Positions 52,291-64,000 of a stretch of 64,000 nt of DNA are shown one piece after another. Both the position numbers and the translations under genes were made by a program. The notes below the pieces were generated by a model. It was not told the origin of the DNA, did no database searches, and worked only from the letters and a program-made list of their open reading frames with translations. Positions within the stretch are counted from its first letter, which is position 1, and every line of letters starts with the position of its first letter. This DNA is from a virus (lineage: Duplodnaviria > Heunggongvirae > Uroviricota > Caudoviricetes): IMG/VR virus record IMGVR_UViG_3300024269_000017; one strand, written 5' to 3'.

Positions 52291-52311
52291 TCAACCTCCT
52301 TCTATGCCTCT

Positions 52312-52340: not shown

Positions 52341-52358
52341 GTAAAAAAGATCGCCCAT

Positions 52359-52387: not shown

Positions 52388-52418
52388 GTATATAGAAATG
52401 ATAAAGGAGATGACTTCA

Positions 52419-53925: not shown

Positions 53926-54201
53926 TTTAGTGGGAATTGTGACCAGGTATAACCCCTTTTCTCTTTCAAAATAATTTTTTTCCCGAAAGGGTGCCCGGAG
54001 GGTGAATGTTGAATGGATTTACATACCAGAAAAAAATACAAGAGTACTGCCAGCATCTGGAACGCTCGTCGGGGCGTGCATGGTCGGCACGCCCCGAGTT
54101 TGCGCAATAAACCTGTCATGCAACAAAAGCGTCGCGAATGCATTGAATGCATCATGTTAAGTGTTATCCTAAAACTTAATAAAAAAAATTGTAAAAACCT
54201 A

Positions 54202-54230
54202 TTGACAAACGCGGTCAGTTGTAGTATACT
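54202..54230 (+). promoter_or_regulatory. early promoter P1 (TTGACA-17-TATACT)
   Basis: cctaTTGACAaac-N-TATACTataat with A-rich upstream tract. Confidence 0.6.
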
Positions 54231-54281
54231 ATAATCACAGCAAGGGACAAGAGCCCAGCTGAAAGAAAGGAAGTAACTACA

Positions 54282-54560
54282 ATGATGACTGCTGAAATGC
54301 TGATGACCATGCTGGAAACCCTCGAACAGGCTGGCGATGTTGAAATCCGTCGCGAATCCGACACTGAAATCTGTGTGGATTTCATCGACTTCATCGGCTT
54401 CGATGATGACTGGTGTGAGCAGTTCCGTGACTATACCATGCCTGAGCTGGTTGAGCAGGTGCAGGACATCATCGACGAGCTGGGCACTGGTGACTTCTAC
54501 CATGAAGTGGTGCTTGATGGTGTGGGCTTCATGTTCGGTTGTACCTCTTACGACATCTAA
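54282..54560 (+). CDS. very acidic small protein (92 aa, ~25 D/E), DNA-mimic candidate
   Basis: conserved leader aaaggaagtaactaca-ATG; TAA stop. Confidence 0.6.
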   Translation: MMTAEMLMTMLETLEQAGDVEIRRESDTEICVDFIDFIGFDDDWCEQFRDYTMPELVEQVQDIIDELGTGDFYHEVVLDGVGFMFGCTSYDI

Positions 54561-54641
54561 GAGGTCACCGAGCACGGGCCTAGCTAGCCAACAAACAAGA
54601 GACACAACAAATAATTAACAAAAATAATCTGTATAAACCTA

Positions 54642-54670
54642 TTGACAAACATCCTGAAACCTGCTATAAT
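54642..54670 (+). promoter_or_regulatory. early promoter P2
   Basis: TTGACAaac-17-TATAAT. Confidence 0.6.
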
Positions 54671-54708
54671 AGGTAGTGTCAAGGGAACAACGAAAGGAGA
54701 TCAAAGCA

Positions 54709-55017
54709 ATGTTTATCCTCATGAAGTATTCGAAGGTAGAAAGTACTCGCACTCGCACCGCCGCACACAGAGTAGGTCTGTTCCGCACTCGCAAAGGTGC
54801 AAACAGAGTGATGGCAAGGCTTCTGGAAGCAGAAAAAAAGAAGCCTGTACCTGCCACTTTCAAGGTGGAACATGAGTGCTATTACAGTACCCGCGCATTC
54901 TGGGATGCTGTTGCACAGATGTACTGGGGTTGGCAGGATCGCCGCTATGCCAAACTGTTGGCGAAGTTCGACCGCATCCAGCAGAAGCTCGAAGCCATGA
55001 GGAGGGCAAGAGGATGA
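54709..55017 (+). CDS. hypothetical basic protein (102 aa)
   Basis: AAAGGAGATCAAAGCA-ATG; TGA stop. Confidence 0.55.
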   Translation: MFILMKYSKVESTRTRTAAHRVGLFRTRKGANRVMARLLEAEKKKPVPATFKVEHECYYSTRAFWDAVAQMYWGWQDRRYAKLLAKFDRIQQKLEAMRRARG

Positions 55018-55136
55018 ACAGCGCAAGGTTTAAGAAGCTCGTCAAGAGGAAAGAAAAGCAAGTCTATGCACAGAGGAGGGAAGAGCGATCTTCCCCCTCG
55101 AAAAAAAAGATAAAAAAGTTTGCGGAAAAGGCTTGA
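55014..55136 (+). CDS. possible 40-aa Lys/Arg-rich peptide
   Basis: ATGA overlap with upstream stop; very basic; no own RBS; weak. Confidence 0.25.
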   Translation: MNSARFKKLVKRKEKQVYAQRREERSSPSKKKIKKFAEKA

Positions 55137-55161
55137 CAAATACCCTAAGACGTGCTATACT
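55133..55161 (+). promoter_or_regulatory. early promoter P3
   Basis: gcTTGACAaa-17-TATACT then gtgtcgaaagggacaag. Confidence 0.6.
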
Positions 55162-55202
55162 AATAGTGTCGAAAGGGACAAGACAAAACACAGAAAGAGG
55201 TA

Positions 55203-55646
55203 ATGAGAATGAAGATCTGGTTCGATATGGATGGTACGATTGCTGACCTGTATGCGGTTGATGGATGGCTTCAGATGCTCCGAGCTTACGACCCTGCACC
55301 CTACGCAATGGCAAAGCCCATGCACCACATGGCAACGCTGGCAAGGATGCTCAACAGGGCACAGGCACAGGGACACGAACTCTGCATCATCAGCTGGTGT
55401 AGCAAGGAAAGCACTCTTGCCTATGATGAAGCAGTCCGAGCCGCCAAGCTCGCATGGCTCGCCAAGCATCTGCCTTCTGTTCATTGGGATGTGGTGGAGA
55501 TCGTTCCCTATGGGCAGAACAAGTGGGACACCTGCAAGAGCGGCATTCTCTTCGATGATGAAGAGCGCAACCGCAACGCATGGGAACAGGGCAAGGCGTT
55601 CACTCCCGAAACTATCTTCGCCACTCTCTCTGCACTCACTCGCTGA
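55203..55646 (+). CDS. HAD-superfamily 5'(3')-deoxyribonucleotidase-like protein (147 aa)
   Basis: N-terminal KIWFDMDGTIADL DxD motif and later ILFDDE motif typical of NT5C-type nucleotidases; AAAGAGGTAATGAGA-ATG. Confidence 0.55.
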   Translation: MRMKIWFDMDGTIADLYAVDGWLQMLRAYDPAPYAMAKPMHHMATLARMLNRAQAQGHELCIISWCSKESTLAYDEAVRAAKLAWLAKHLPSVHWDVVEIVPYGQNKWDTCKSGILFDDEERNRNAWEQGKAFTPETIFATLSALTR

Positions 55647-55675
55647 GTGCAGAGAGCAACAAGAAAGAGAGGTAA

Positions 55676-55915
55676 ATGACTATGGGATTCAGTTATAATA
55701 GTTATAATAGTGATAACTCTGGATGCGCGACTGTGATTGCGGCGCTGATTGTGCTGGCGCTGGTCATCTTCGCTGGGCCATGGGTTGTGCAGATGGGATA
55801 CAATGCAGTAAAGCTGGACTTCAACCTGCCTGACCTGAACTACTGGCAGTTCTTCTGGGCTACCAATGCATTGCAGGTTATCTTCAAGACCAATGTTTCC
55901 AGTAAGAGCAAGTGA
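55676..55915 (+). CDS. small membrane protein (79 aa)
   Basis: AGAGGTAAATGACT RBS; hydrophobic core; co-transcribed with 55203 gene. Confidence 0.5.
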   Translation: MTMGFSYNSYNSDNSGCATVIAALIVLALVIFAGPWVVQMGYNAVKLDFNLPDLNYWQFFWATNALQVIFKTNVSSKSK

Positions 55916-55925
55916 TAAATGAAAT

Positions 55926-55960
55926 GCAGGATGACTCCACACATCCTGCATTTCTTTTCC
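55926..55960 (+). terminator. rho-independent terminator
   Basis: GCAGGATGactccacaCATCCTGC followed by TTTCTTTTCC. Confidence 0.6.
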
Positions 55961-56400
55961 CTCTGGCCGGCTGGTGCACGGGCGCCAAGTCTGTGCACCA
56001 GCCGTATTCCCGCACGCATAGGCCATGCATAATTATTCATCGACAATGCATAAACATACAAAAACAAGCCCCATCCCAAAACAGAGCCACTCTCGTCTTC
56101 GCTTGCGCGGGCGGAATTTCACCGCCGTGGATGTATGGGGTGGAGTGATCGCGTAGGCTAGGGGGACGATTTGAACGTCTCTTCTACTTGCGTAGCGTGC
56201 TAACCGAGCTGACACTACCCGTTCGCCGCGATCTGGAAGCTCTTGATACCTGCGAGAGTTTTGCCACCGAGTAATCGCGAATCCTCAGTGCCCGTAGTGG
56301 TTGTGCTTCCCTCAACCTCTGATAGTATTATACTACAAGAGGGATCAAATGTCAATACCTTTTTGCAGAAAAAGAAAAAAAAGTTTTTTTCAAAAACCTA

Positions 56401-56429
56401 TTGACATTCCTGCCCACCTATGCTATAAT
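56401..56429 (+). promoter_or_regulatory. early promoter P4
   Basis: aaaaagtttttttcaaaaacctaTTGACAttcc-N-TATAAT. Confidence 0.6.
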
Positions 56430-56486
56430 AGTCTCAGTTGGTGAGGGAAACACCGACAAGACAAAATGACAAAGGTGGTAATCACA

Positions 56487-57056
56487 ATGAATGCACTGGA
56501 ACTGATGGATCTCTACTACGACCGCATGTGCGCTTGCACTTCCACTTCTGGACGCAACAACAACTTCAAAAAGATGCTTGCTCTGTGGGAAGAAAATGAA
56601 GTTGTTCGTGCGGTTTGGACTTTTGTCAAGGATGCCTATTTCATCGTTGATCGGTTTGTCAAGGGCGTTGTTGACAAGGTAAAGTCTTTCTTTAAGCCGA
56701 CCGCAAACGTGGTTTACTCCTGCGACAAGGTAGAGGGCAATCAGCTTGTGTATCTCCTGCGGCTGCTTAATGAAGAGGGCAATCTGGTTTGGTCAAAGGT
56801 CGGCACGACCACCCGAACCATTGAAGAACGCATGAGCGAACACCTGCGCTACTATCGCAAGTATGGTATCAAAACGATCGAAGTTACTAAAGTTTGGGAT
56901 TGCGGAGAAGTTGACGCAGAAGGTTTGGAAAGTTTCCTGCGTTCCAAGTACATCCGCAAGCATCCGAACACTTTCCAGAAAAATGATCGTTTCTATCAAG
57001 TTGAGTTTGATCTGGAACAGGCTGAAAAGTGGGTTGACTTCTATCTGAACGATTGA
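56487..57056 (+). CDS. T5orf172 / GIY-YIG-like domain protein (~190 aa)
   Basis: LVYLLRLL...WSKVGTTTRTIEERMSEH...DAEGLESFLRSKY pattern resembles T5orf172 domain; GGTGG RBS 8 nt before ATG 56487 (an upstream ATG at 56466 is also in frame). Confidence 0.5.
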   Translation: MNALELMDLYYDRMCACTSTSGRNNNFKKMLALWEENEVVRAVWTFVKDAYFIVDRFVKGVVDKVKSFFKPTANVVYSCDKVEGNQLVYLLRLLNEEGNLVWSKVGTTTRTIEERMSEHLRYYRKYGIKTIEVTKVWDCGEVDAEGLESFLRSKYIRKHPNTFQKNDRFYQVEFDLEQAEKWVDFYLND

Positions 57057-57087
57057 AAAAAAAGTTTGTCAAGGGCGTAAAAACCCC

Positions 57088-57116
57088 TTGACAAACAGCC
57101 CAAGATGCTGTATAAT
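57088..57116 (+). promoter_or_regulatory. early promoter P5
   Basis: ccccTTGACAaacagcccaagatgctgTATAAT; spacer nearly identical to P11 and P15. Confidence 0.6.
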
Positions 57117-57141
57117 AGTTAATGTAAAGGAGGTCAAGAAC

Positions 57142-57546
57142 ATGGCTAAGGAACTTCAGTATCCTACCCCTGAGTGGTTGGACGCCATGGTCGATAAGAC
57201 TGGTTGCTCACTGGAAGAAGCCGAAATGGCATGGTGGGACAAGCAGATCGACAAGGGCAACCCTACCCCATGGGACTTGCCACCCGAGCAAGAGAAGGAA
57301 GCACGCAAGGCGAACCGACCCAAGGCTCACAAGGTGGTTGACCCTGCAGGCAAGACCCGAACCCGAGAACGCAAGCCCAACGAGGACAAGCGACTATTGG
57401 TGGACTGCCTGCACGACGCATTGAAGGACTTTGACAACTGCGAGGTTGTCAACCCCGAGCGTCAAGTGGACTTTGTGCTGAACGGCGTTTCCTATTCGGT
57501 TACGCTGACCGCCCACCGACCCCCCAAGGACAAGGGGAAGGGCTGA
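57142..57546 (+). CDS. hypothetical protein (134 aa)
   Basis: AAAGGAGGTCAAGAAC-ATG; TGA stop. Confidence 0.55.
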   Translation: MAKELQYPTPEWLDAMVDKTGCSLEEAEMAWWDKQIDKGNPTPWDLPPEQEKEARKANRPKAHKVVDPAGKTRTRERKPNEDKRLLVDCLHDALKDFDNCEVVNPERQVDFVLNGVSYSVTLTAHRPPKDKGKG

Positions 57547-57597
57547 TACCCTTCCCCAAGCCCCGAAAAAAAACTTGAAAAAAGTTTCAAAAAGGGC

Positions 57598-57626
57598 TTG
57601 ACAAACCGACCGACCTGTGGTATACT
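57598..57626 (+). promoter_or_regulatory. early promoter P6
   Basis: gcTTGACAaaccgaccgacctgtggTATACT with A-tract UP element. Confidence 0.6.
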
Positions 57627-57697
57627 TAAGATGTTCCAAGGGAAGGAACAAAACAAAACGACAGCGCCAAGAGCGCGGAAAGAAAGAGGTAATCGCT

Positions 57698-58066
57698 ATG
57701 ACTACTATCAATGTGAAGAATGAGAAGCTGACCTACGTGACCGCCCTGACCTACGCCATTGAGAACGGCAACCTGCCCACCGAGATCGCGGAAAAGCTGA
57801 TTGCCCTGCGTACTCAGCAGGAGAAGCGTAACAGCGGTGAGAAGAAGCCGACCAAGGTTCAGGAAGCCAACGTTGGCATCAAGCAGGTTATCCTGACTGC
57901 CCTTGAGGGTCAGGAAGCCAAGACCGTAAGCGAGATTCAGACCCTTGCTCCCGAGCTGGGCGAGCTGAGCAATCAGAAGGTTGCAAGCCTTGTCCGTCAG
58001 CTTGTGGAAGAGGGCAAGCTGACCCGAATCGAGGAGAAGCGCAAGGCGTATTTCCGCCTTGCCTGA
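57698..58066 (+). CDS. winged-helix DNA-binding protein, paralog 1 (122 aa)
   Basis: AGAGGTAATCGCT-ATG; C-terminal SNQKVASLVRQLVEEGKLTRIEEKRKAYF shared with 61254 and 63165 genes. Confidence 0.6.
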   Translation: MTTINVKNEKLTYVTALTYAIENGNLPTEIAEKLIALRTQQEKRNSGEKKPTKVQEANVGIKQVILTALEGQEAKTVSEIQTLAPELGELSNQKVASLVRQLVEEGKLTRIEEKRKAYFRLA

Positions 58067-58113
58067 CCCTCGCGGGGTGGTGAAAAAAACTTTCACCACC
58101 CCGAAAAAACCCC

Positions 58114-58142
58114 TTGACAACCTGCCTATCCTGTGCTATAAT
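58114..58142 (+). promoter_or_regulatory. early promoter P7
   Basis: ccccTTGACAacctgcctatcctgtgcTATAAT. Confidence 0.6.
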
Positions 58143-58187
58143 AGTATCAACGAAAGGGCAAGAGCCCGAACAACGAGGAGGATCCCC

Positions 58188-58445
58188 ATGAAGAACACCA
58201 TCGCTGCCACCCTGATCGCCAACTACGGTTTCGAAGCCCAGTCCAACTGCCTGTTCACTGGCAAGGGCTCTTGGCTGGCCTCTCACGAGACCGTCAAGGT
58301 CACCTTCCACGGTGACATGGTCACCATCGACCACTACCGCTTCTTCTGGGATGGCGGTGATGTGGAGTGGGAACGCTCCACGGTGGTCACCTGCCACCTC
58401 TCCCGACTGTGGGAGAACCTCCCCGAGTGGGTGCTCAGAGCCTGA
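58188..58445 (+). CDS. hypothetical protein (85 aa)
   Basis: GAGGAGGATCCCC-ATG; TGA stop. Confidence 0.55.
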   Translation: MKNTIAATLIANYGFEAQSNCLFTGKGSWLASHETVKVTFHGDMVTIDHYRFFWDGGDVEWERSTVVTCHLSRLWENLPEWVLRA

Positions 58446-58461
58446 GCCCCACTCTTTTTTT
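58425..58461 (+). terminator. rho-independent terminator
   Basis: GAGTGGG...CCCACTC stem with TTTTTTT; followed by a second GC hairpin. Confidence 0.5.
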
Positions 58462-58563
58462 ATTCGCCGGCGCGTGGGCGGGCGCTGCGCTTGCCCACTC
58501 GCCGAATTTCCGCGAGGAGCACCAGCCAGCAAAAAATAATTTGAAAAACTTGCAAAAAAGGTA

Positions 58564-58592
58564 TTGACAAATCATCCCGAATCTGCTATAAT
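58564..58592 (+). promoter_or_regulatory. early promoter P8
   Basis: gtaTTGACAaatcatcccgaatctgcTATAAT; near-identical to P18. Confidence 0.6.
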
Positions 58593-58642
58593 TAAACCAT
58601 CGAAAGGGAACACAGAGTCCCAACAGAAAGGAAGTTACTACT

Positions 58643-58894
58643 ATGATGACTGCCAAAGAAGCTAAGACCATGACCACCAACTACCTGACCGCCGAAGCTG
58701 ACAAGCACCTGCAGAAGATTGAAGACACCATTCAGATCTATGCCAGCAAGGGCAACACCTCCATGTATTACAGCAATGGTCTCAGCGGTGCCGACCCTCG
58801 CATCCAGTCCAAGGTATACAACACTATGGTTGAAGCAGGTTACAAGGTTCGTTGGTGTGAATCCAGCCTGCACATCAGCTGGGCAGATGCCTAA
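58643..58894 (+). CDS. hypothetical protein (83 aa)
   Basis: ORF track; aaaggaagttactact-ATG leader; TAA stop. Confidence 0.6.
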   Translation: MMTAKEAKTMTTNYLTAEADKHLQKIEDTIQIYASKGNTSMYYSNGLSGADPRIQSKVYNTMVEAGYKVRWCESSLHISWADA

Positions 58895-58913
58895 AAAAAG
58901 TTGCTCAGAGGGG

Positions 58914-58942
58914 TTGACAAATCCCTCTGAGCATGGTATAAT
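58914..58942 (+). promoter_or_regulatory. early promoter P9 with inverted repeat flanking -35
   Basis: GCTCAGAGGGG-TTGACAA-ATCCCCTCTGAGC then catgg-TATAAT. Confidence 0.6.
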
Positions 58943-58979
58943 AAGTACATCAAAAGGAACAAGAAAGGAAGTAACTACA

Positions 58980-59318
58980 ATGACTAAGAAGATTTCTCTG
59001 AATGACTGGACCTACATCGGCAAGTACAATCCTGCGGCCAAGTGGCTTCGTCCCCTCTGCTCCTACTCTCTGACCGAAGCTGGTGCCTATTCTGCAGATG
59101 GCAACCCCGACTATCGCCGCGATTGCAAGATTAGCTGGCCTGTGTATCTGCTCCTGTTCCTGCCTGTGCATCTACTTCAGTTGCTGGTGTGCCTGTGGGA
59201 TGGCGGCTTGAAAGAATTTGAAATTGCAAGTCGCCACATTGGGCATGATTACATCACTGCACATGGCGACAACAGCGGACGCTATCAGATGGCAAAAGAA
59301 ATTTGGGAAAAGGCTTGA
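58980..59318 (+). CDS. protein with C-terminal transmembrane segment (112 aa)
   Basis: aaaggaagtaactaca-ATG; WPVYLLLFLPVHLLQLLVCLW hydrophobic stretch; its TGA lies inside the -35 of P10. Confidence 0.55.
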   Translation: MTKKISLNDWTYIGKYNPAAKWLRPLCSYSLTEAGAYSADGNPDYRRDCKISWPVYLLLFLPVHLLQLLVCLWDGGLKEFEIASRHIGHDYITAHGDNSGRYQMAKEIWEKA

Positions 59319-59343
59319 CAAAGCCTTTCCCCTGTGGTATAAT
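59315..59343 (+). promoter_or_regulatory. early promoter P10
   Basis: gcTTGACAaagcctttcccctgtggTATAAT. Confidence 0.55.
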
Positions 59344-59371
59344 AAATGTATCAAATGAAGGAGTGATAAAC

Positions 59372-59545
59372 ATGGGTATCATGATCGGTGCTATTGTTGC
59401 AAGTCAGACCGCTATGAGAGTGGCGGCAATGAATGCCATGAAAAAAAATCTGGAAAATCAGAAAAAAGCTGTTGACAAACAGCCCAAAGTGTGCTATACT
59501 AATAATGTCGAAAGGGACAACAGAAAGGAAGGTAAACAAAAATGA
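59372..59545 (+). CDS. 57-aa peptide whose 3' half is embedded in promoter P11
   Basis: GAAGGAGTGATAAAC-ATG strong RBS; hydrophobic N-terminus; TGA overlaps the ATG of 59542 gene. Confidence 0.4.
   Translation: MGIMIGAIVASQTAMRVAAMNAMKKNLENQKKAVDKQPKVCYTNNVERDNRKEGKQK
59472..59500 (+). promoter_or_regulatory. early promoter P11
   Basis: gTTGACAaacagcccaaagtgtgcTATACT then aataatgtcgaaagggacaac. Confidence 0.6.
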
Positions 59546-59856
59546 TGAAGATCGAAATGACCAAACACGCTATGGTAGACCGCATTGACCGCTGTGTGTA
59601 CATTGCACAGAAGATTGGCTTCGGTGACAAGATTGTGTGCGAAGGTTTCCGCAGAGACAAGGGCACTCGGCAGTGCCTGTCCGAAACTGGTGTGCTGATT
59701 GTCAAGATGCCGGAAAGCGAAACCATGGTGACTGCTTACATTCCCACTCTTGAACAGGCTGGCATGATTTACAAGTCCGCAGGCTTGCACATGCCGAACT
59801 GGATGGCACAGAAAATCAAGAAGAATCAGAAGTATGCAAAGGGCTGTCCTGTGTGA
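59542..59856 (+). CDS. hypothetical protein (104 aa)
   Basis: ORF track; AAAGGAAGGTAAACAAAA-ATG. Confidence 0.6.
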   Translation: MMKIEMTKHAMVDRIDRCVYIAQKIGFGDKIVCEGFRRDKGTRQCLSETGVLIVKMPESETMVTAYIPTLEQAGMIYKSAGLHMPNWMAQKIKKNQKYAKGCPV

Positions 59857-59891
59857 CAGCCCTTTGCAAGAAAAAAATTTTCAAAAAGGTA

Positions 59892-59920
59892 TTGACAACC
59901 TGCCGAACCTATGGTATAAT
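59892..59920 (+). promoter_or_regulatory. early promoter P12
   Basis: aaaaattttcaaaaaggtaTTGACAacctgccgaacctatggTATAAT. Confidence 0.6.
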
Positions 59921-59952
59921 AAGTACAACGAAAGACGAAAGGAAGTAACACA

Positions 59953-60426
59953 ATGAACACTCTGCTTCTCACCTTCATCCTGCTGAACATCGCCAATGTT
60001 ATCATTCAGACCGTCAAGAGCATTGCAACCATCAAATGCGGAAAAGGGGTCGCCGCGATTGTTAACGCTGTTGCCTTCGGACTCTACACTGTGGTCACTG
60101 TCTACATGATGTGCGATTTGCCTCTTGCCACCAAGGCGCTGATTGTCGCAGGCTGTAACCTTGTGGGTGTGTATGTGGTCAAGTATTTTGAAGAAAAGGC
60201 AAGAAAAGACAAACTCTGGAAAGTCGAAGTCACCATTCCTGCCGAACAAGCAGAACAGATGATTGAAGATTGCAAATACTATGGATTCACTTACAACTAT
60301 GTGAACATCGAAAAGTATTTCTTGTTTAACTTCTATTGTCCCACTCAGCAGGACAGTCTGAATGTTAAGAAACTGTTACAGAGCTATGATGCAAAATACT
60401 TTGTGACTGAAAGCAAAAATTTGTGA
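59953..60426 (+). CDS. membrane protein, 2 predicted TM helices plus soluble C-terminal domain (157 aa)
   Basis: ORF track; aaaggaagtaacaca-ATG; hydrophobic N-terminal ~80 aa. Confidence 0.6.
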   Translation: MNTLLLTFILLNIANVIIQTVKSIATIKCGKGVAAIVNAVAFGLYTVVTVYMMCDLPLATKALIVAGCNLVGVYVVKYFEEKARKDKLWKVEVTIPAEQAEQMIEDCKYYGFTYNYVNIEKYFLFNFYCPTQQDSLNVKKLLQSYDAKYFVTESKNL

Positions 60427-60434
60427 GAAAGGGG

Positions 60435-60463
60435 TTGACAACCCCTCTCACATGTGGTATAAT
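60435..60463 (+). promoter_or_regulatory. early promoter P13 with inverted repeat flanking -35
   Basis: GTGAGAAAGGGG-TTGACAA-CCCCTCTCAC then atgtgg-TATAAT. Confidence 0.6.
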
Positions 60464-60493
60464 AAGTACATCAAAAGGAAAGAGGTAATGAAC

Positions 60494-60766
60494 ATGAGAG
60501 CAACTGGTATTGTAAGAAGAGTCGATGAACTGGGTCGCATTGTTATCCCCAAGGAAATCCGCAGGAACCTGAACATCAAAGAGGGCGATCCCCTTGAGAT
60601 GTATCTGGACAAGGAATACGGGCTTGTGATGAAGCCCTACCATGAAGAGCATCTGAGCTTTGACCGCCTGCAGTCTGAGTGGGAAAGCCTGAGCACCGCA
60701 AAGCGGCAGGAACTGATCTGCGAAATGGTGAACCACCTCGATGACCCCATCCGCTGTGAAGAGTGA
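60494..60766 (+). CDS. AbrB/MazE/SpoVT-family (swapped-hairpin) transcriptional regulator (~90 aa)
   Basis: N-terminus MRATGIVRRVDELGRIVIPKEIRRNLNIKEGDPLE matches AbrB-N domain pattern; AAAGAGGTAATGAAC-ATG. Confidence 0.6.
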   Translation: MRATGIVRRVDELGRIVIPKEIRRNLNIKEGDPLEMYLDKEYGLVMKPYHEEHLSFDRLQSEWESLSTAKRQELICEMVNHLDDPIRCEE

Positions 60767-60786
60767 CCGCAAGGTCACTCTTTTTT
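60761..60786 (+). terminator. rho-independent terminator (first of tandem pair)
   Basis: GAGTGACCgcaaGGTCACTC + TTTTTT. Confidence 0.7.
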
Positions 60787-60793
60787 CGCCCGC

Positions 60794-60820
60794 GCGCCCA
60801 CGAGCGTGGGCGCCGGTTTT
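60794..60820 (+). terminator. second tandem terminator
   Basis: GCGCCCACgagcGTGGGCGC cgg TTTT. Confidence 0.6.
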
Positions 60821-60912
60821 CCCGCGTATCCTTCCATTATACCATTTTTCGAGCAATTTGTCAATAGGCAAACTGCACAAACTTTTTCCCGAAACTTTGT
60901 GCAATCTGTCAA

Positions 60913-60941
60913 TAGACATTTGGGGTCTGATACTGTATAAT
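60913..60941 (+). promoter_or_regulatory. variant promoter (TAGACA-17-TATAAT) with conserved upstream TTTGTGCAATCTGTCAA element and palindrome
   Basis: caaTAGACAtttggggtctgatactgTATAATagataatgtcaggaggg; same architecture recurs at 62818. Confidence 0.5.
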
Positions 60942-61022
60942 AGATAATGTCAGGAGGGCACTGAGGTGATGCCGAGTGAAGCTGGTCGACAAAACTTCTT
61001 CAAAAAAAGTTTTGAAAAACCC

Positions 61023-61051
61023 TTGACAAAGCCGCCAAGATGTGATATACT
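61023..61051 (+). promoter_or_regulatory. early promoter P14b (drives ~90-nt leader RNA)
   Basis: cccTTGACAaagccgccaagatgtgaTATACT. Confidence 0.55.
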
Positions 61052-61143
61052 GATAGTGTCAAGAGGGCAAGGAACTGCAAGAGGAACCCTTCGGCGCTGA
61101 AGCGCACAGGATAAAAACTCAAAAAAAAAGTTTCAAAAACCCC

Positions 61144-61172
61144 TTGACAAACACCGCAAGGTGTGGTACAAT
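61144..61172 (+). promoter_or_regulatory. early promoter P14c
   Basis: ccccTTGACAaacaccgcaaggtgtggTACAAT. Confidence 0.55.
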
Positions 61173-61253
61173 AAGGATGTCGAAAGGGCAAGGCGCCAGC
61201 CCCACTCGACAGTCACTAACACCAATCGACAAGAAAGAAAGAGGTAATGAATC

Positions 61254-61607
61254 ATGGAAAAGATGACTTATGTGAAGGCTCTGGAAGTTGCTCTGAACTG
61301 CGAAGCTCTGTCTGCCGAAGTGCGTGAGAAGCTGTCTGCTCTGCGTGACCAGCAGGTCAAGCGTAACTCTGCGGAGAAGAAGCCCACCAAGACCCAGCAG
61401 GCGAATGAGGGCGTGAAGTCCCATGTGCTGGAAGTGCTGGCTTCCTGCGCCCAGCCTGTGACTGTGTCTGAACTGATGCAGGCTGATGAAGAGCTGTCCC
61501 AGCTCTCCAATCAGAAGGTCGCTTCGCTGGTTCGCCAGCTGGTGGAAGCTGGCAAGGTTCAGCGACTGGAAGAGAAGCGCAAGGCTTACTTCACTCTGGT
61601 GAAGTGA
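61254..61607 (+). CDS. winged-helix DNA-binding protein, paralog 2 (117 aa)
   Basis: ORF track; AGAGGTAATGAATC-ATG; shares SNQKVASLVRQLVEAGK...EEKRKAYF with paralogs. Confidence 0.65.
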   Translation: MEKMTYVKALEVALNCEALSAEVREKLSALRDQQVKRNSAEKKPTKTQQANEGVKSHVLEVLASCAQPVTVSELMQADEELSQLSNQKVASLVRQLVEAGKVQRLEEKRKAYFTLVK

Positions 61608-61667
61608 CCTTGCGGGGCAGGGGTAAAACCCTGCCCCATCTTCCCGAAAAAAAGTTTCAAAAAGGTA

Positions 61668-61696
61668 TTGACAAACAGCCCAACATCTGCTATAAT
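61668..61696 (+). promoter_or_regulatory. early promoter P15
   Basis: aaaaagtttcaaaaaggtaTTGACAaacagcccaacatctgcTATAAT. Confidence 0.6.
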
Positions 61697-61740
61697 AGAT
61701 AATGTCGAAAGGCAATAGAACAAGAAAGAGGTAATGCAAA

Positions 61741-62397
61741 ATGAATCGCCACTTCTACATTCTGATGGATACTGAAACTGCCAACGGTCTGGATTGCCCC
61801 ATCAACTACAATACCGCATGGTCTGTAATTGACCAGCACGGCAACACCTACGAAAACTTCAATTTCATCAACCGCGACATTTTCTTTGACCGTCCCGAAC
61901 TCATGCAGTCCGCATACTACGCCCACAAGATTCCGCAGTATCTTGAACAGATTGAACGCGGCGAAATCAAGGTTGCAACGTGGTACGAAATCCGCAAGGC
62001 GTTCCGCGACTGTTGCGAAAAGTACAACATCAAGGCAGTTATCGCCCACAATGCCCGATTCGACTATCGCTCCTGCACGATGACCCAGCGTTACGAAACC
62101 TGCTCCAAGTATCGCTACTTCTTCCCGAAGGGCGTTGAAATTTGGGACACGCTGGCAATGGCTCGTGATGTGGTCGCCCCGATGCCCACTTACCGCAAGT
62201 GGTGCGAAACCAACGGTTTCACCTTGAAGAACGGACAGCCCCGACTGACCGCCGAAATCCTGTTCCGCTTCATCTCCAAGGACATTGACTTTGTGGAAGA
62301 ACACAAGGCAATGGAAGATGTGAACATCGAAAAGGAAATCTTTTGGTACTGCATCCGCAAGCACAAGGCAATGCGTCGAAAGGCTTTCAAGGACTGA
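61741..62397 (+). CDS. DnaQ-like DEDDh 3'-5' exonuclease (218 aa)
   Basis: YILMDTETANG (Exo I), AHNARFDYR (Exo II), EEHKAMEDV (Exo III H-x4-D) motif pattern; AGAGGTAATGCAAA-ATG. Confidence 0.6.
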   Translation: MNRHFYILMDTETANGLDCPINYNTAWSVIDQHGNTYENFNFINRDIFFDRPELMQSAYYAHKIPQYLEQIERGEIKVATWYEIRKAFRDCCEKYNIKAVIAHNARFDYRSCTMTQRYETCSKYRYFFPKGVEIWDTLAMARDVVAPMPTYRKWCETNGFTLKNGQPRLTAEILFRFISKDIDFVEEHKAMEDVNIEKEIFWYCIRKHKAMRRKAFKD

Positions 62398-62404
62398 AAA
62401 AGTC

Positions 62405-62433
62405 CTTGACAGCCGCCCCAAAGTGTGATATAA
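62405..62433 (+). promoter_or_regulatory. early promoter P16
   Basis: gtccTTGACAgccgccccaaagtgtgaTATAAT. Confidence 0.6.
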
Positions 62434-62465
62434 TAAGTACATCAAAAGGAAAGAGGTAATTGACC

Positions 62466-62702
62466 ATGACTCAGTTTCAGTATGAAGTAAATGTTTACGA
62501 AGAAGACCACGTCCTGTCCTGCAAGACCAACAATCCCCGCACCGCCTGCCAGTTTATGCTGGATCATGCCGACTGCTATCTTGATGTCATCAACGGTTTT
62601 ACTGGTGAAGTGCTCGCTGTGATGAACCATGAGAATGCTTACTGTCAAGAGGATTTCGGGCTGATGCTTCTCGGCTATATGACCGAAACAATTTGGGGCT
62701 GA
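62466..62702 (+). CDS. hypothetical protein (78 aa)
   Basis: AAAGAGGTAATTGACC-ATG; TGA stop. Confidence 0.55.
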   Translation: MTQFQYEVNVYEEDHVLSCKTNNPRTACQFMLDHADCYLDVINGFTGEVLAVMNHENAYCQEDFGLMLLGYMTETIWG

Positions 62703-62728
62703 CCCTTCGGGGTTGGCTCTTTTCTTTT
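62697..62728 (+). terminator. rho-independent terminator (first of tandem pair)
   Basis: GGCTGACCCttcgGGGTTGGCT + CTTTTCTTTT. Confidence 0.6.
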
Positions 62729-62731
62729 GAG

Positions 62732-62763
62732 CCGGTCGTGCGCGGGCCACACGACCGGTTTTT
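62732..62763 (+). terminator. second tandem terminator
   Basis: CCGGTCGTGcgcgggccaCACGACCGG + TTTTT. Confidence 0.7.
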
Positions 62764-62817
62764 CCGCAATGGGCAGATCTACCAAGAAATTCGCTGAAAA
62801 TTTGTGCATTTTGCCAA

Positions 62818-62846
62818 TAGACATTTTATCCCGAAAGTGGTATACT
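62818..62846 (+). promoter_or_regulatory. variant promoter (TAGACA-17-TATACT), second copy
   Basis: tttgtgcattttgccaaTAGACAttttatcccgaaagtggTATACTaataatgtcaggagggg. Confidence 0.5.
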
Positions 62847-62938
62847 AATAATGTCAGGAGGGGAGGCCAAGAAACCGAGAGGCGGCCGACTCTCAGGAAG
62901 TAGAGGAAGAAAACTTGAAAAAAAGTTTCCGAAACCTC

Positions 62939-62967
62939 TTGACAAACCACTGACCCTGTGGTATAAT
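62939..62967 (+). promoter_or_regulatory. early promoter P17b (drives ~95-nt structured leader RNA)
   Basis: ctcTTGACAaaccactgaccctgtggTATAAT. Confidence 0.55.
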
Positions 62968-63090
62968 AAGGGTGTCAGGTGAGGGAAGCAACTGACAGTC
63001 GCTTAGCCAAGGTAGCCTGCGGAGTGGGTGCGCAACACTCCATGGTTAGACCCTGTGCAAGCGAAGCGAAAAAAAAGTTTGCGAAACCCC

Positions 63091-63119
63091 TTGACAAACA
63101 ACTGAATAGGTGCTATAAT
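63091..63119 (+). promoter_or_regulatory. early promoter P17c
   Basis: ccccTTGACAaacaactgaataggtgcTATAAT. Confidence 0.6.
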
Positions 63120-63164
63120 AAGAGTGTCCTAAGGGACAAGACAAAAAGAAAGAGGTAATGAATC

Positions 63165-63572
63165 ATGATGAAGTTCACTAAGAAGGTTGCTCTGGAAGTC
63201 GCTATCAATGCTATCGAGAACTCCACCCTGCCCAACTGGTCTTTCACTGAGGGCGAGGAAACCCTGACCATCTCCAAAGCGGAAGCCATCGAGAAGCTCC
63301 AGAAGATGATTGAGCAGTTGGAGGCTAAGTCCAACGCTCCCAAGAAGCCCACTAAGGTGCAGGAAGCCAACGAGGGTGTCAAGGACATCATCAAGGCTGT
63401 GCTGGAAGGTCAGTCCCCCATGACTGTCTCCGAAATCATGACCCACTCTGCGGAACTGAGTGCCCTGTCCAACCAGAAGGTCGCCTCTCTGGTGCGCCAG
63501 ATGGTCGAGGCTGGCGTGCTGGTTCGCACTGAGGAAAAGCGCAAGGCTTTCTTCGCCCTCGCTCAGGGCTGA
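63165..63572 (+). CDS. winged-helix DNA-binding protein, paralog 3 (135 aa)
   Basis: ORF track; AGAGGTAATGAATC-ATG; shares SNQKVASLVRQMVEAG...EEKRKAFF. Confidence 0.65.
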   Translation: MMKFTKKVALEVAINAIENSTLPNWSFTEGEETLTISKAEAIEKLQKMIEQLEAKSNAPKKPTKVQEANEGVKDIIKAVLEGQSPMTVSEIMTHSAELSALSNQKVASLVRQMVEAGVLVRTEEKRKAFFALAQG

Positions 63573-63576
63573 GCCT

Positions 63577-63601
63577 GAGACCCCGAAAGGGGTCTCTTTT
63601 T
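63577..63601 (+). terminator. rho-independent terminator (first of tandem pair)
   Basis: GAGACCCCgaaaGGGGTCTC + TTTTT. Confidence 0.7.
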
Positions 63602-63607
63602 CTTGGG

Positions 63608-63638
63608 CTGCTCGCGGACGGGCGCCGCGAGCAGTTTT
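63608..63638 (+). terminator. second tandem terminator
   Basis: CTGCTCGCGGacgggcgCCGCGAGCAG + TTTT. Confidence 0.6.
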
Positions 63639-63693
63639 CCGCGATACACTAGACCCACCGAAAAATTTTCTTGAAAAATCGGCATTTTAGGGG

Positions 63694-63722
63694 TTGACAG
63701 ATTATCCCGAATCTGATATAAT
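63694..63722 (+). promoter_or_regulatory. early promoter P18 (near-duplicate of P8)
   Basis: ggggTTGACAgattatcccgaatctgaTATAAT. Confidence 0.6.
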
Positions 63723-63749
63723 AGAACCATCGAAAGGAGCTGATCTGAA

Positions 63750-63890
63750 ATGTTCACCTGTCCTGCACTCTGTATCCTTGGTCTGGTTCTCTCTATGTGG
63801 GGATTCATCTGGGGTATCTTCTTCCAGGAATTCCTGTGGCTGTGTGTAGCTGGTTTTGCGCTGGGCTGGATGTTTTCTAAAGATTGTTGA
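63750..63890 (+). CDS. 46-aa hydrophobic membrane peptide
   Basis: AAAGGAGCTGATCTGAA-ATG; two hydrophobic helices; TGA stop. Confidence 0.45.
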   Translation: MFTCPALCILGLVLSMWGFIWGIFFQEFLWLCVAGFALGWMFSKDC

Positions 63891-63899
63891 AATTAGGGG

Positions 63900-63928
63900 T
63901 TGACAAACTGCCCCAACTGTGTTATAAT
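63900..63928 (+). promoter_or_regulatory. early promoter P19
   Basis: ggggTTGACAaactgccccaactgtgtTATAAT. Confidence 0.6.
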
Positions 63929-63953
63929 AATAATGTCGAAAGGAGCTGATAGC

Positions 63954-64000
63954 ATGGAGTTCAAGGAAGCTATCAAGGCTTACGCTAAAATGATGGGCGT
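63954..64000 (+). CDS. 5' end of next early gene (truncated by window)
   Basis: AAAGGAGCTGATAGC-ATG; MEFKEAIKAYAKMMG... Confidence 0.45.
   Translation, partial: MEFKEAIKAYAKMMG

Follow-up and report, generated by a model that had tools for sequence, protein, structure and literature searches.

Nearly every predicted early transcript of a large gut phage appears to open with a common ten-base block that resembles a ribosome-binding site (RBS). The window, a stretch of 64,000 nucleotides, carries between 54202 and 63928 of its plus strand 23 near-consensus promoters of the sigma-A/sigma-70 type, with the anatomy TTGACA, 17 nt, TGnTATAAT and an A-rich element upstream (AAAAAAGTTTcAAAAA) (Table 1). 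When 10 or more of the 12 consensus positions had to match, 25 promoters were found from 54000 to 64000, 23 on the plus and two on the minus strand, all with a 17-nt spacer; sites with at least 9 of 12 positions numbered 37 against 8.0 ± 3.0 in shuffled sequence. The array runs about 0.7 kb past the window end. Transcription starts were placed at the -35 start + 35, a prediction from promoter geometry and a family-wide Y(-1)A(+1) signal only.

Table 1. Predicted transcript 5' ends of the promoter array and associated genes (window coordinates)
Feature	-35 start	Position	Strand	Remarks
5' block ACAGCAAGGGAC	54202	54237–54248	+	leader 45 nt; separate RBS GAAAGGAAGT; GGG pairs with CCC downstream
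5' block (T)GTCAAGGGAAC	54642	54677–54688	+	leader 32 nt; separate RBS GAAAGGAG
5' block GTCGAAAGGGAC	55133	55168–55179	+	exact consensus of the preliminary description; leader 35–41 nt; RBS GAAAGAGGTAAT; NT5C-like gene
5' hairpin GUUGGUG-AGGGAAA-CACCGAC from +2	56401	56436–56457	+	leader 51 nt; gene with T5orf172 domain
5' block TGTAAAGGAGGT	57088	57123–57134	+	leader 19 nt; block = RBS
5'-terminal hairpin GUUCC-AAGGGAA-GGAAC from +1	57598	57633–57649	+	65-nt leader of winged-helix paralog 1
5' block AACGAAAGGGCA	58114	58149–58167	+	GGGC-AAGA-GCCC hairpin at +8..+19; leader 39 nt
5' block ATCGAAAGGGAA	58564	58599–58610	+	leader 44 nt; separate RBS
5' block ATCAAAAGGAAC	58914	58949–58960	+	leader 31 nt; separate RBS GAAAGGAAGT
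5' block ATCAAATGAAGGAG	59315	59350–59363	+	leader 22 nt; block = RBS
5' block GTCGAAAGGGAC	59472	59507–59518	+	leader 35 nt; separate RBS GAAAGGAAGGT
5' block AACGAAAGACGAAAGG	59892	59927–59942	+	leader 26 nt; RBS = second GAAAGG
5' block ATCAAAAGGAAAGAGG	60435	60470–60485	+	short leader of AbrB/MazE-like gene; block = RBS
5' block (T)GTCAGGAGGGC	60913	60948–60959	+	ORF-less; tandem promoter 1/3 before paralog 2
5' block GTCAAGAGGGCA	61023	61058–61069	+	ORF-less; tandem promoter 2/3 before paralog 2
5' block GTCGAAAGGGCA in 5'-terminal structure GUCGA...UCGAC	61144	61179–61210	+	-12.9 kcal/mol; 75-nt leader of paralog 2
5' block (T)GTCGAAAGGCA	61668	61703–61714	+	38-nt leader of gene 61741–62397
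5' block ATCAAAAGGAAAGAGG	62406	62441–62456	+	short leader; block = RBS
5' block GTCAGGAGGGGA	62818	62853–62864	+	ORF-less, GGA-rich; tandem promoter 1/3 before paralog 3
5' hairpin GUCAGgUG-AGGGAAG-CAaCUGAC, then conserved structured RNA	62939	62974–63070	+	ORF-less; tandem promoter 2/3 before paralog 3
5'-terminal hairpin GUCC-UAAG-GGAC from +1	63091	63126–63137	+	39-nt leader of paralog 3
5' block ATCGAAAGGAGC	63694	63729–63740	+	leader 21 nt; block = RBS
5' block GTCGAAAGGAGC	63900	63935–63946	+	leader 19 nt; block = RBS; gene extends past window end
Consensus promoter		56290–56355	-	transcript 5' end is a hairpin with AGGGAAG loop (GGUUG-AGGGAAGCA-CAACC)
Winged-helix paralog 1		57698–58066	+	candidate regulator
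AbrB/MazE-type (SpoVT/AbrB domain) protein		60494–60766	+	candidate DNA-binding regulator
Winged-helix paralog 2		61254–61607	+	AlphaFold model (pLDDT 90.9) suggests a generic wHTH fold, ArsR/MarR/Fur/MecI type
Gene		61741–62397		phrog_20187; annotated as exodeoxyribonuclease in Enterococcus phage H1
Winged-helix paralog 3		63165–63572	+	

When the promoters were aligned on the -35 element, information content showed a second rise after the -10, with peaks of about 1.0–1.5 bits at +3 (C), +6 (A) and +8/+9 (GG). Conservation was confined to predicted positions +1 to +10, with the consensus R-T/A-C-R-A-A-A-G-G-R. Pairwise identity among the 23 promoters was 0.53 for these positions (0.32 expected from composition) and 0.40 for the spacer; given that it fell to background over +11 to +20 (0.34 against 0.33), the block is about 10 nt long, not 17. 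A preliminary description of this DNA, correct in its coordinates, had proposed a motif from +1 to +17 in more than 15 promoters. A conserved motif above background is indeed present, but is narrower than claimed, and the single 17-mer consensus (RTGTCGAAAGGGACAAG) was matched with up to 3 mismatches by only 5 of 23 promoters. The count holds for a loose core (TCRAAAGG, up to 2 mismatches, 19 of 23) and not for a tighter one (12 with up to one mismatch, 10 exact). Offsets of -3 to +3 were permitted in this search, and all 12 matches with up to one mismatch lay at offset 0 or +1. At that stringency the core occurred 14 times in the 414 bases following -10 elements against 58 times in the remaining 63.6 kb of the plus strand, an enrichment of about 37-fold, and a position-blind search with TGTCGAAAGGG and 2 mismatches returned 15 sites against 11.6 expected, which is not above chance. 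The non-random feature is the register of the block with the promoter. Its composition reads as a start-site context (pyrimidine at -1, G/A at +1, then T/A and C) joined to a Shine-Dalgarno (SD)-like purine run, GAAAGG(G/A), centred on +8/+9.

Simple recent duplication was rejected as the source of this conservation, since the block is better conserved than the spacers among both paralogs and orthologs. Across 35 gene pairs with three syntenic relatives, identity was 1.00 for the -35, 0.96 for the -10, 0.81 for +1 to +10 and 0.57 for the spacer, and pairs with spacer identity down to 0.38 still retained 0.85 in the block. The earlier proposal that conservation after the -10 exceeds that of the diverged spacers, implying selection, is therefore borne out; the comparison with surrounding sequence by which mere duplication was to be recognised did not refute it, either among paralogs or among orthologs. 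Among paralogs, block identity correlated weakly with spacer identity (r = 0.15). The 3' half of the 17-mer (GGGACAAG) is common to 4–5 units only, which also share the leader ACAAGACAAAA, and this shared part is cassette duplication.

In seven short-leader units (18–26 nt) the spacing between block and start codon is that of an RBS, 12 long-leader units (31–75 nt) have a separate canonical RBS (GAAAGAGGTAAT or GAAAGGAAGT) downstream of the block, and in four units the next promoter follows without an intervening ORF. The reading favoured here, tentatively and at a little under even probability, is that the block is a 5'-proximal ribosome-binding stabiliser or enhancer of the STAB-SD or SP82 type on exchangeable promoter-leader cassettes. 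The 16S rRNA 3' end of a 30S subunit would pair with the purine run a few nucleotides from the RNA 5' end. In short-leader genes this pairing would be plain translation initiation; in long-leader and ORF-less tandem units the bound ribosome would shield the 5' end from 5'-end-dependent decay, keeping off RNase J1 or RNase Y (Firmicutes), sometimes aided by a small 5'-terminal hairpin. The site may also keep ribosomes on standby for the true RBS 20–60 nt downstream, and carriage on a promoter-leader cassette would give it its fixed register with the -10. Protection or boosting of messages by a ribosome site at the 5' end is already known from Firmicutes phages and bacteria. A STAB-SD-type site bound by the 30S subunit blocks RNase J1 (PMC4113751), the RNAs of gsiB, aprE and phage SP82 have shorter half-lives once their ribosome-binding sequences are mutated, and a strong SD without a start codon can stabilise RNA (PMC7509114).

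Positions +1 to +16 of the long-leader RNAs in the window paired with ACCUCCUUUCU at -7.7 kcal/mol, against -5.7 kcal/mol for same-base shuffles, 0 of 500 of which were as strong, ACCUCCUUUCU standing for a 16S rRNA 3' end that may differ from the host's. In the wider family, 130 long leaders gave z = -7.0 for this pairing against -0.8 in a control region. Significance judged from shuffles is overstated throughout, the sequences being akin to one another. A 5'-proximal SD-like site was present in 45–62% of family long leaders and in 18–23% of coding-sequence controls. No ATG, GTG or TTG lies 4–16 nt past the GG in any of the 12 long-leader units, and T makes up 0–8% of long leaders against 22% of the region; both would be expected if ribosomes truly dock at the site and selection acts against spurious starts. 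Counting against ribosome binding, the 5' motif has a consensus of its own (AAGGGAC, AAGGGAA, AAGGGCA), unlike the RBSs proper of the units that carry it (GAAAGAGG, GGAGG), and structure prediction has the GGG paired in units 54202, 58114, 58564 and 61144, which would make pairing with 16S rRNA harder. Ribosome binding also leaves the conserved T and C at +2/+3 unaccounted for.

An alternative that we regard as unlikely, though deserving real weight, is that the block acts on RNA polymerase as an initial-transcribed-sequence element. With promoters so near consensus in their -35, extended -10, -10 and UP element, escape would be the limiting step, and selection would favour sequences that make it quick and productive and fix the start precisely. 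Such an element would be T-poor and purine-rich over +4 to +10, with GG near +8 and a fixed Y(-1)R(+1) start context, and both the depletion of T past +3 and a register with the -10 that is constant regardless of leader length, gene or ORF presence agree with it. Published work points the same way. Escape from T5 N25, a promoter limited at this step, is facile when the non-template initial transcribed sequence is purine-rich and is abolished when it is pyrimidine-rich (PMC12464699), and in libraries randomised over +2 to +10, GG and GA are favourable, being preferred near +6 in fast-escaping sequences, and T's in the first ~7 bp or TG near +5/+6 slow escape (PMC5961368). However, the conserved T at +2 is a feature tied to slow escape at some promoters (PMC5961368), anti-SD complementarity is greater than in shuffles of the same purine content, and in related phages an AAGGA loop enclosed by covarying stems varies in its distance from +1 (5' flank 3–8 nt), an RNA-level constraint. 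An escape function is compatible with the ribosome-binding stabiliser, and the purine-rich part of the signal may act through the DNA template and RNA polymerase.

The RNA-level constraint is seen in a subclass of blocks in which AAGGR occupies the loop of a 5' hairpin with covarying stems. In related phages the loop is AAGGA(A/C)A and the flanking stem is Watson–Crick paired in 18 of 18 distinct sequences with nine different stems, so that the SD-like bases stay constant while their surroundings vary, a pattern that speaks for the ribosome-binding reading. Hairpins with this loop lay no more than 15 nt from predicted starts in 26 of 82 cases, against 0–5 for control loops, and 5'-terminal hairpins were found at 20 of 87 promoters of the window and three close relatives, against 9.9 in shuffles. 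The subclass is concentrated in the leaders of winged-helix paralogs, and orthologous leaders of these genes keep the pairing with different arms (GUUCC/GGAAC, GUCCUC/GAGGGC, GCUC/GAGC). The invariant loop, its strong localisation at 5' ends and the enrichment of terminal hairpins would also suit an RNA tag, AAGG(G/A), through which a host CsrA-type or phage early protein co-regulates translation or stability of the early regulon, an account that we hold rather improbable. In it AAGG(G/A) often lies in a 5' hairpin loop with a second GGA ~20 nt on, in the RBS, a layout that matches the classical CsrA target, in which a GGA in a hairpin loop and another in the SD are spaced by ~20 nt. Read by eye, GGA is present in 19 of 23 window motifs, and hairpins ahead of winged-helix genes would fit autoregulation. 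However, none of the 20 early proteins showed a CsrA domain or any other that could be recognised as RNA-binding, modelling gave the winged-helix paralog a generic DNA-binding wHTH fold, and many units have a linear motif or one with its GGG paired. Enterococcus phage EF1, moreover, has the same array with the same kind of 5' ends, although to our knowledge E. faecalis is without CsrA.

The array also encodes candidate DNA-binding regulators, three winged-helix paralogs and the AbrB/MazE-type protein, and two of the winged-helix genes each lie behind three tandem motif-bearing promoters. By binding TGTC-N6-GACA or a related operator on double-stranded DNA over +1, the early-made winged-helix paralogs, or else the AbrB-like protein, could shut the early promoters off in Cro-like negative feedback. 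TGTCGAAAGGGACA and TGTCCTAAGGGACA are dyads at -1 to +13, and the paralogs match the Pfam penicillinase-repressor (BlaI/MecI) family weakly, below threshold; members of that family bind TACA/TGTA dyads. Such an operator is nevertheless quite improbable: by eye, both half-sites occur in only 3–5 of 23 promoters, information is asymmetric, peaking centrally (AAAGG) with 0.3–0.5 bit at the 3' half-site, and the motif is invariably in the transcribed orientation. Freely varying stems around a fixed loop in the relatives are the opposite of an operator, and pairing kept with different arms in orthologous winged-helix leaders also counts against one. Among the functions suggested in the preliminary description, a translational enhancer comes closest to the favoured reading, with a 5' SD-like site that serves as the RBS in short leaders and is a second site in long ones; a promoter-escape element and a phage regulator binding site stay as live rivals. 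An anti-terminator site finds no support, each gene having its own promoter without boxA/boxB-type anatomy, and neither does an RNA processing signal, the motif lying at the predicted 5' end and not within a precursor.

Cultured relatives have Firmicutes hosts, in keeping with the ribosome-binding reading, as are the array and 5' ends of phage EF1; against it, related contigs bear MAG labels of various groups (Clostridia, Treponema, others). Promoter-leader cassettes have demonstrably been exchanged from gene to gene: in the related genome L119 the 59472 gene shows 96% identity, yet spacer and leader differ, and the 63091 leader recurs in L034 ahead of a non-orthologous gene. Several units share longer leader modules (GGGACAAGACAAAA), and in more distant phages nearly all orthologs have 20–30-nt leaders with the RBS at about +8 to +16, the position of the 5' motif in the window. 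These observations would fit a long-leader SD-like run that has no function in itself and is left over from an ancestral promoter-plus-RBS cassette, its likeness upheld by recent duplication and gene conversion among cassettes. That is very improbable, given a block that holds its identity where spacers have diverged and is weakly tied to them among paralogs, an AAGGA loop unchanged in hairpins with fully turned-over stems, and the purging of start codons and T downstream. As a ribosome-binding stabiliser, the block would move with its promoter as an exchangeable cassette, and early messages would be stable and highly translated.

The early promoters lie in a G+C-rich island of the window, which is itself an internal portion of a phage genome of ~168 kb (see the table for coordinates). 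Bases 1 to ~53,900 have ~35% G+C and encode virion proteins on the - strand; from 54,200 to just beyond the window end, the DNA has ~49% G+C and codes on the + strand. A 218-aa early protein is encoded identically in ENA contig k141_1461088 (167,964 bp) and in many contigs of 50-200 kb. The + strand of the island carries 23 promoters and the - strand two; each agrees with the consensus at 10-12 of 12 positions and has a 17-nt spacer, and most have a TG extended -10 and an upstream, UP-like AAAAAAGTTTcAAAAA tract. At a looser cut-off of 9/12, 37 sites were found against 8.0 +/- 3.0 in shuffles. The array drives ~20 small genes, nearly every one from its own promoter. Recognisable domains among their products are few, namely an NT5C-like domain (just under the Pfam threshold), T5orf172, AbrB/MazE and three paralogs with weak winged-helix matches. 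Megablast of the array and the neighbouring late region against the phage collection returned no match, and a scan of IMG/VR DNA with the pattern TATAAT-N6-TGTCGAAAGG returned 32 loci, of which 29 were chance occurrences and three (L003, L015 and L027) genuine related arrays.

Features of the early island, the late region and related phage loci. Units are named by the first base of the -35 element; L-numbers denote related phage loci
Feature	Coordinates	Strand	Description
Short-leader units (n = 7)	57088, 59315, 59892, 60435, 62406, 63694, 63900	+	Leader 18-26 nt; 5' block is the RBS
Long-leader units (n = 12)		+	Leader 31-75 nt; separate canonical RBS further downstream (GAAAGAGGTAAT, GAAAGGAAGT and similar)
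ORF-less units (n = 4)	60913, 61023, 62818, 62939	+	Upstream promoters in two tandem triplets, one ahead of winged-helix paralog 61254 and the other ahead of 63165
-35 hexamers in inverted-repeat loops	58900-58935, 59305-59332, 60425-60455		Repeat comes from the end of the preceding unit; example GGGAAAAGGC-TTGACAA-GCCTTTCCCC
Candidate structured RNA	55920-56320	-	ORF-free, GC-rich, ~400 nt; transcribed from a consensus promoter whose -35 is at 56355
Conserved structured RNA	62974-63070	+	ORF-less unit between promoters 62939 and 63091
GC-rich hairpin, five copies	55966-56020, 58466-58525, 60786-60835, 62740-62790, 63605-63655		Directly 3' of the T-tract of ordinary terminators
Hairpin with loop (A)ACGAUGGUAA	L059 8984, L103 4919, L071 5273, L063 4823, L064 5718, L060 4738		Upstream of one gene family; none seen in the window
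Early island, ~49% G+C, sharply bounded	54200-64000, on to ~64700; L033 2460-13000	+	Within a ~35% G+C genome
HNH/homing-endonuclease gene	53107-53925		Adjoins the early promoter island
218-aa early protein	61741-62397		Matches Enterococcus phages EF1, EF5, H1 and VRE9
Early array of phage EF1 (L112, MF001358)	4495-11241		~20 consensus promoters on one strand
Late virion genes	12647-47922	-	Appear to read TAG as a sense codon
Frame, probably tape measure protein	24883-36255		3791 codons, 42 in-frame TAGs
Late frame	18769-24780		2004 codons, 18 in-frame TAGs

When the 23 promoters were anchored on the -35 element, information content rose a second time after the -10. Taking +1 as the seventh base after the -10, the consensus of this 5' block is R(+1) T/A C R A A A G G R(+10). 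The predicted +1 is defined solely by promoter geometry and a family-wide pyrimidine(-1)/A(+1) signal, which is strong in 713 non-redundant promoters of related phages and supports the assignment. Pairwise identity among the 23 promoters reached 0.53 over +1 to +10 (0.32 expected from composition), compared with 0.45 for the upstream tract and 0.40 for the spacer; +11 to +20 was at background (0.34 vs 0.33). With offsets of -3 to +3 permitted, the 8-nt core TCRAAAGG was exact in 10 of 23 promoters and present with at most two mismatches in 19; the 12 matches with at most one mismatch all fell at offset 0 or +1. A position-blind search with TGTCGAAAGGG and two mismatches was unremarkable (15 matches, 11.6 expected); the signal is visible only when anchored on promoters.

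The preliminary description had proposed a 17-nt motif shared by more than 15 promoters. Under the same permitted offsets this 17-mer matched with at most three mismatches in only 5 of 23 promoters. Its 3' half (GGGACAAG) was limited to four or five units and, because these also have the further leader sequence ACAAGACAAAA in common, represents a duplicated leader module. Simple recent duplication, which that description had named as the outcome that would refute a function, failed as an explanation for the block itself. Among paralogous promoters, identity of the 5' block was nearly independent of spacer identity (r = 0.15) and was still 0.50 in pairs with unrelated spacers. Promoters before orthologous genes were then compared between the window and three syntenic relatives (L115, L118 and L119; 35 pairs), giving identities of 1.00 for the -35, 0.96 for the -10, 0.81 for +1 to +10, 0.75 for the discriminator, 0.66 for +11 to +20 and 0.57 for the spacer. 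In 17 of these pairs the spacers had decayed to 0.38, with +1 to +10 identity at 0.85. By these ortholog-pair identities, including those with decayed spacers, the 5' block is the third most constrained promoter-linked element; it is real and under selection.

Promoter-leader units are swapped between genes. Orthologous genes with up to 96% amino-acid identity carry unrelated spacers and leaders in relatives: the gene of unit 59472 is 96% identical in L119, yet spacer and leader differ; the gene of 61668 has a short leader in L119; and the leader of 63091 was found again in L034 before a non-orthologous gene. Arbiol et al. reportedly described in 2010 the promoter-early stem-loop (PeSL) mobile regulatory cassettes of T4-type phages. 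The island resembles these in its dense small early genes, each with a sigma-70-type promoter by a stem-loop, and in the exchange of early promoter and stem-loop units beside small ORFs by recombination between genes; it differs in phage lineage and host phylum. To our knowledge, the PeSL description includes no conserved SD-like 5' tag. In several cases an inverted repeat at the end of the preceding unit has the next -35 hexamer in its loop, so that the stem-loop and the promoter after it form one compact module, reminiscent of the T4 cassettes.

Units were classed by an anti-SD duplex criterion together with a minimum ORF length. In the 12 long-leader units a canonical RBS lies downstream, and the 5' block is therefore a second, separate SD-like site. 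The first GG stands at predicted +8 in 9 of 12 (a position that depends on the +1 assignment given above), none of the 12 has an ATG, GTG or TTG 4-16 nt past the GG, and the T content of these leaders is only 0-8%. The block thus does not direct translation in the long leaders, where the separate RBS serves the gene, pairing with the anti-SD at about -9 to -13.5 kcal/mol in most units. The RBS of 55133 is weaker as listed (-5.6 kcal/mol), and an alternative ATG 6 nt downstream is better placed. Over +1 to +16, the long leaders paired with ACCUCCUUUCU, taken as the presumed 16S 3' end of the host, at a mean of -7.7 kcal/mol compared with -5.7 in same-base shuffles, none of 500 being as strong. 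The long leaders are thus complementary to the assumed 16S rRNA 3' end. Among 130 long leaders of the wider family the same test gave z = -7.0 (control region, z = -0.8), and a 5' anti-SD peak at +3 to +10 was present in 45-62% of family long leaders vs 18-23% of coding-sequence controls; relatedness of the sequences inflates these statistics, which are consistent in direction. Most family leaders are 20-29 nt long, and in these the purine run is simply the RBS.

The strongest rival reading is that the 5' block affects RNA polymerase during promoter escape, where it could act together with ribosome binding. Early promoters of T5 (N25 and relatives) are escape-limited, with purine-rich first 10-20 transcribed bases strongly modulating output; for phage promoters limited in this way such an effect is well established (PMC12464699, PMC5961368), and in T5 it was defined in E. 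coli as an action on RNA polymerase. The promoters of the island are likewise very strong early promoters with purine-rich initial transcribed bases (purine fraction 0.67-1.00 over non-template +4 to +12), in company with 10-12 of 12 consensus positions, the extended -10 and the UP-like tract. However, purine content does not account for the full complementarity of the block to the anti-SD, and in relatives the constraint on it is one of RNA structure; we regard promoter escape as an unlikely explanation of its conservation.

Predicted structures placed the GGG in a loop in units 56401, 57598 and 62939 and at the - strand promoter at 56355, and in a stem in units 54202, 58114, 58564, 61144 and 63091, which rules out a single common RNA structure for the 5' block. 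Structure prediction of the leaders, as proposed in the preliminary description, accordingly yielded no shared fold; what it did reveal was a hairpin subclass with the AAGGR core in the loop. Family-wide, pairing of nucleotides 1-4 was not enriched in long leaders (0.148 vs 0.147). Hairpins beginning at +1 to +3 were predicted for 20 of 87 promoters of the window and three close relatives, compared with 9.9 in shuffles. Winged-helix genes of relatives have leaders in which AAGGA(A/C)A occupies a loop flanked by a stem of 3-7 bp; this stem was Watson-Crick paired in 18 of 18 distinct sequences comprising nine different stem sequences. Of 82 such hairpins, 26 lay within 15 nt of a predicted start, the count for control loops being 0-5. 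Stems fell out of register when the hairpins were aligned with MAFFT, and covariation was therefore tabulated by script. In orthologous winged-helix leaders the hairpin starts exactly at +1 with differing arms (GUUCC/GGAAC, GUCCUC/GAGGGC and GCUC/GAGC). The constant feature is therefore the SD-like purine run near the 5' end, to which a 5'-terminal hairpin is an optional addition.

An anti-terminator site had been a further candidate. A lambda-type nut site, in which boxA precedes a boxB hairpin with a GNRA-like pentaloop and a long multi-terminator operon is served, does not match the leaders: their hairpin loops are of 3-11 nt, mostly 4-8, with an AAGGR core, nearly every gene is provided with a promoter, and no boxA-like repeat was noticed on reading the leaders by eye. 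A DNA operator for the winged-helix paralogs, overlapping the start site, is also disfavoured and appears improbable. Candidate DNA-binding proteins are encoded nearby, comprising the three paralogs (57698, 61254 and 63165), with a confident wHTH model (pLDDT 90.9), and the AbrB/MazE-domain protein (60494). Against this, a complete TGTC-N6-GACA dyad was found in only 3-5 of 23 promoters on reading the sequences, conservation is asymmetric with information concentrated in the centre (0.3-0.5 bit at the 3' half-site), and in relatives the arms covary while the centre is fixed. A fold search with a winged-helix paralog gave only generic wHTH matches, all with E > 0.001, and no specific regulator family was therefore assigned.

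The 5' block and the hairpin-displayed AAGGR variants might alternatively serve as a leader tag common to the whole regulon and recognised by a dedicated factor, a reading we consider doubtful. A phage early protein could fill this role, for example a winged-helix paralog that acts on the RNA or at the melted start site, as could an RNA-binding protein of the host; early messages would thereby gain privileged stability or translation, or the whole early class would be shut off jointly, and exchangeable cassettes would carry the tag to newly acquired genes. The hairpin subclass fits the CsrA/Rsm layout, in which one GGA occupies a hairpin loop and another, 10-60 nt away, lies at the RBS; most window units are linear or have the GGG paired. 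Neither CsrA nor another RNA-binding domain was found among the 20 early proteins of the phage.

Taken together, conservation, position, anti-SD complementarity, the lack of start codons close by and an AAGGA loop that stays invariant while its stems covary lead us to read the 5' block, tentatively, as a 5'-proximal ribosome-binding element on exchangeable promoter-leader cassettes, which we hold to be somewhat short of probable. In short leaders the block is the RBS. In long leaders and tandem units it may be a stabiliser of the STAB-SD/SP82 type and possibly a standby site, where 30S binding would protect the RNA from RNase J1/Y. STAB-SD was described for cry3A of Bacillus thuringiensis (Agaisse and Lereclus 1996) and blocks RNase J1 (Mathy et al. 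2007; both summarised in PMC4113751). As in cry3A, an SD-like sequence lies a few nucleotides from the (here predicted) RNA 5' end, upstream of the real RBS, has no start codon after it and matches the 3' end of 16S rRNA (assumed here) by complementarity, the CCUUUC tail included. The seven short-leader units are not STAB-SD-like, because the block there is the RBS. The cry3A element belongs to a single gene and is exposed by processing of a longer transcript, whereas the 5' block stands at the predicted primary 5' end of ~20 transcripts of one phage regulon and has a variant consensus, AAAGGG(A/C), which in some units lies within a hairpin loop or is paired in part.

A polypurine 5' stabiliser of an early RNA of Bacillus phage SP82 was reportedly described by Hue, Cohen and Bechhofer in 1995; it is said to become 5'-terminal after endonuclease cleavage and to have been defined functionally on one RNA. 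The 5' block shares with SP82, and with the gsiB, aprE, ermC and hbs stabilisers, an RBS-like purine tract at the 5' end, and SP82 itself is a phage of a Firmicute host. Unlike SP82, the motif here is linked to promoters, repeated over an array and recognised from DNA sequence. Mutation of the ribosome-binding sequence in gsiB, aprE and SP82 RNAs shortens half-life (PMC7509114). The 5' block is best classed among the known 5' SD-like leader elements, with a cassette architecture resembling that of PeSL, and does not reveal a new kind of mechanism.

Other structured RNAs are present in the island. The - strand stretch at 55920-56320 is conserved in L068 and L069 (E = 4.5e-30), phages whose proteins differ by 30-40%, and has a core of ~80 nt that is almost identical (CCCCATACATCCACGGCGG...TGGGATGGGGC). 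Predicted helices include compensatory changes and a T-loop-like GACG-TTCAAAT-CGTC. It had no Rfam, tRNA or tmRNA match, a search for further homologs gave none beyond the two known contigs, and it is a candidate new structured RNA. In the RNA at 62974-63070 a long stem (CGCUUAG...CAAGCG) is topped by an apical hairpin (GGAGUG-GGUGCGCAA-CACUCC), with five pairs showing compensatory changes among three phages (the window, L097 and L068); RNAs of this type always lie upstream of a winged-helix paralog. The five copies of the GC-rich hairpin differ in their arms, share CG(G/A)GC in the loop and end in a tail that is (T)TTTCCGCG or closely similar. The copy at 60786 lies in the path of a consensus promoter on the - strand (-35 at 60864), and in L074 a hairpin of this kind has promoters pointing at it from either side. 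A further leader hairpin, in relatives, has the conserved loop (A)ACGAUGGUAA on differing stems (for example GGUUGAG.../...CCUCAAUC and GGGG.../...CCCC). Rfam covariance models over 52000-64000, with E up to 1, gave nothing credible, the best score being 24.5 bits against a gathering score of 94.

With regard to the host, whose identity we infer, 74 of the 77 records matching the prohead-protease-like protein were phages with a named Firmicute host, the other three being uncultured gut sequences. MAG labels of related contigs were mixed and mis-binned, and host inference from the genome collection is ambiguous. The matches included phAss-1, a TAG-recoded siphovirus-like phage with Clostridia as predicted host; the phAss-1 paper makes no mention of promoters (PMC10607447). 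Reading through TAG raised long-frame coverage of the window from 32.8 kb to 48.2 kb. Several other late genes contain no in-frame TAG, and a tRNA/tmRNA scan found none, hence no suppressor tRNA, within the window. The read-through fits recoded phages of the phAss-1 type (PMC10607447). The same array occurs in EF1, a cultured E. faecalis phage, whose 5' ends include ATAGAAAAGGAAAGG and whose ORF-less units, among them AGAAAGTTAAGGAGGGAAC and AGAAAGTTAAGGAGGGAACAAAAAAA..., lead straight into the next promoter; array, 5' ends and ORF-less units are all unannotated in the EF1 record.

The gene cluster is similar to the host-takeover module of SPO1 (Herelleviridae), which has ~25 small early genes and many strong sigma-A promoters. 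A nucleotide search of the phage collection found no sequence relationship to SPO1, and the lineage described here differs in being TAG-recoded, siphovirus-like and related to phAss-1 and EF1. In many related contigs of 130-200 kb (L036, L038-L042 and L044) the early array lies at the contig end, and in IMGVR_UViG_3300045988_154609 at both ends (L045 and L047), which suggests that in some members it falls within a terminal repeat, as does the SPO1 module.

If the ribosome-binding reading holds, every early transcript would be marked with a 5'-proximal ribosome-binding tag in an entire lineage of large TAG-recoded, uncultured gut phages and in cultured Enterococcus phages such as EF1, extending the single-gene STAB-SD/SP82 stabiliser principle to a regulon-wide design on exchangeable cassettes. 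The consensus promoter and its 10-nt 5' tag would then be a compact portable module for strong expression in Firmicutes and a sequence signature by which early host-takeover regions could be recognised in metagenomic phage contigs, with EF1 as a convenient experimental model for the array.
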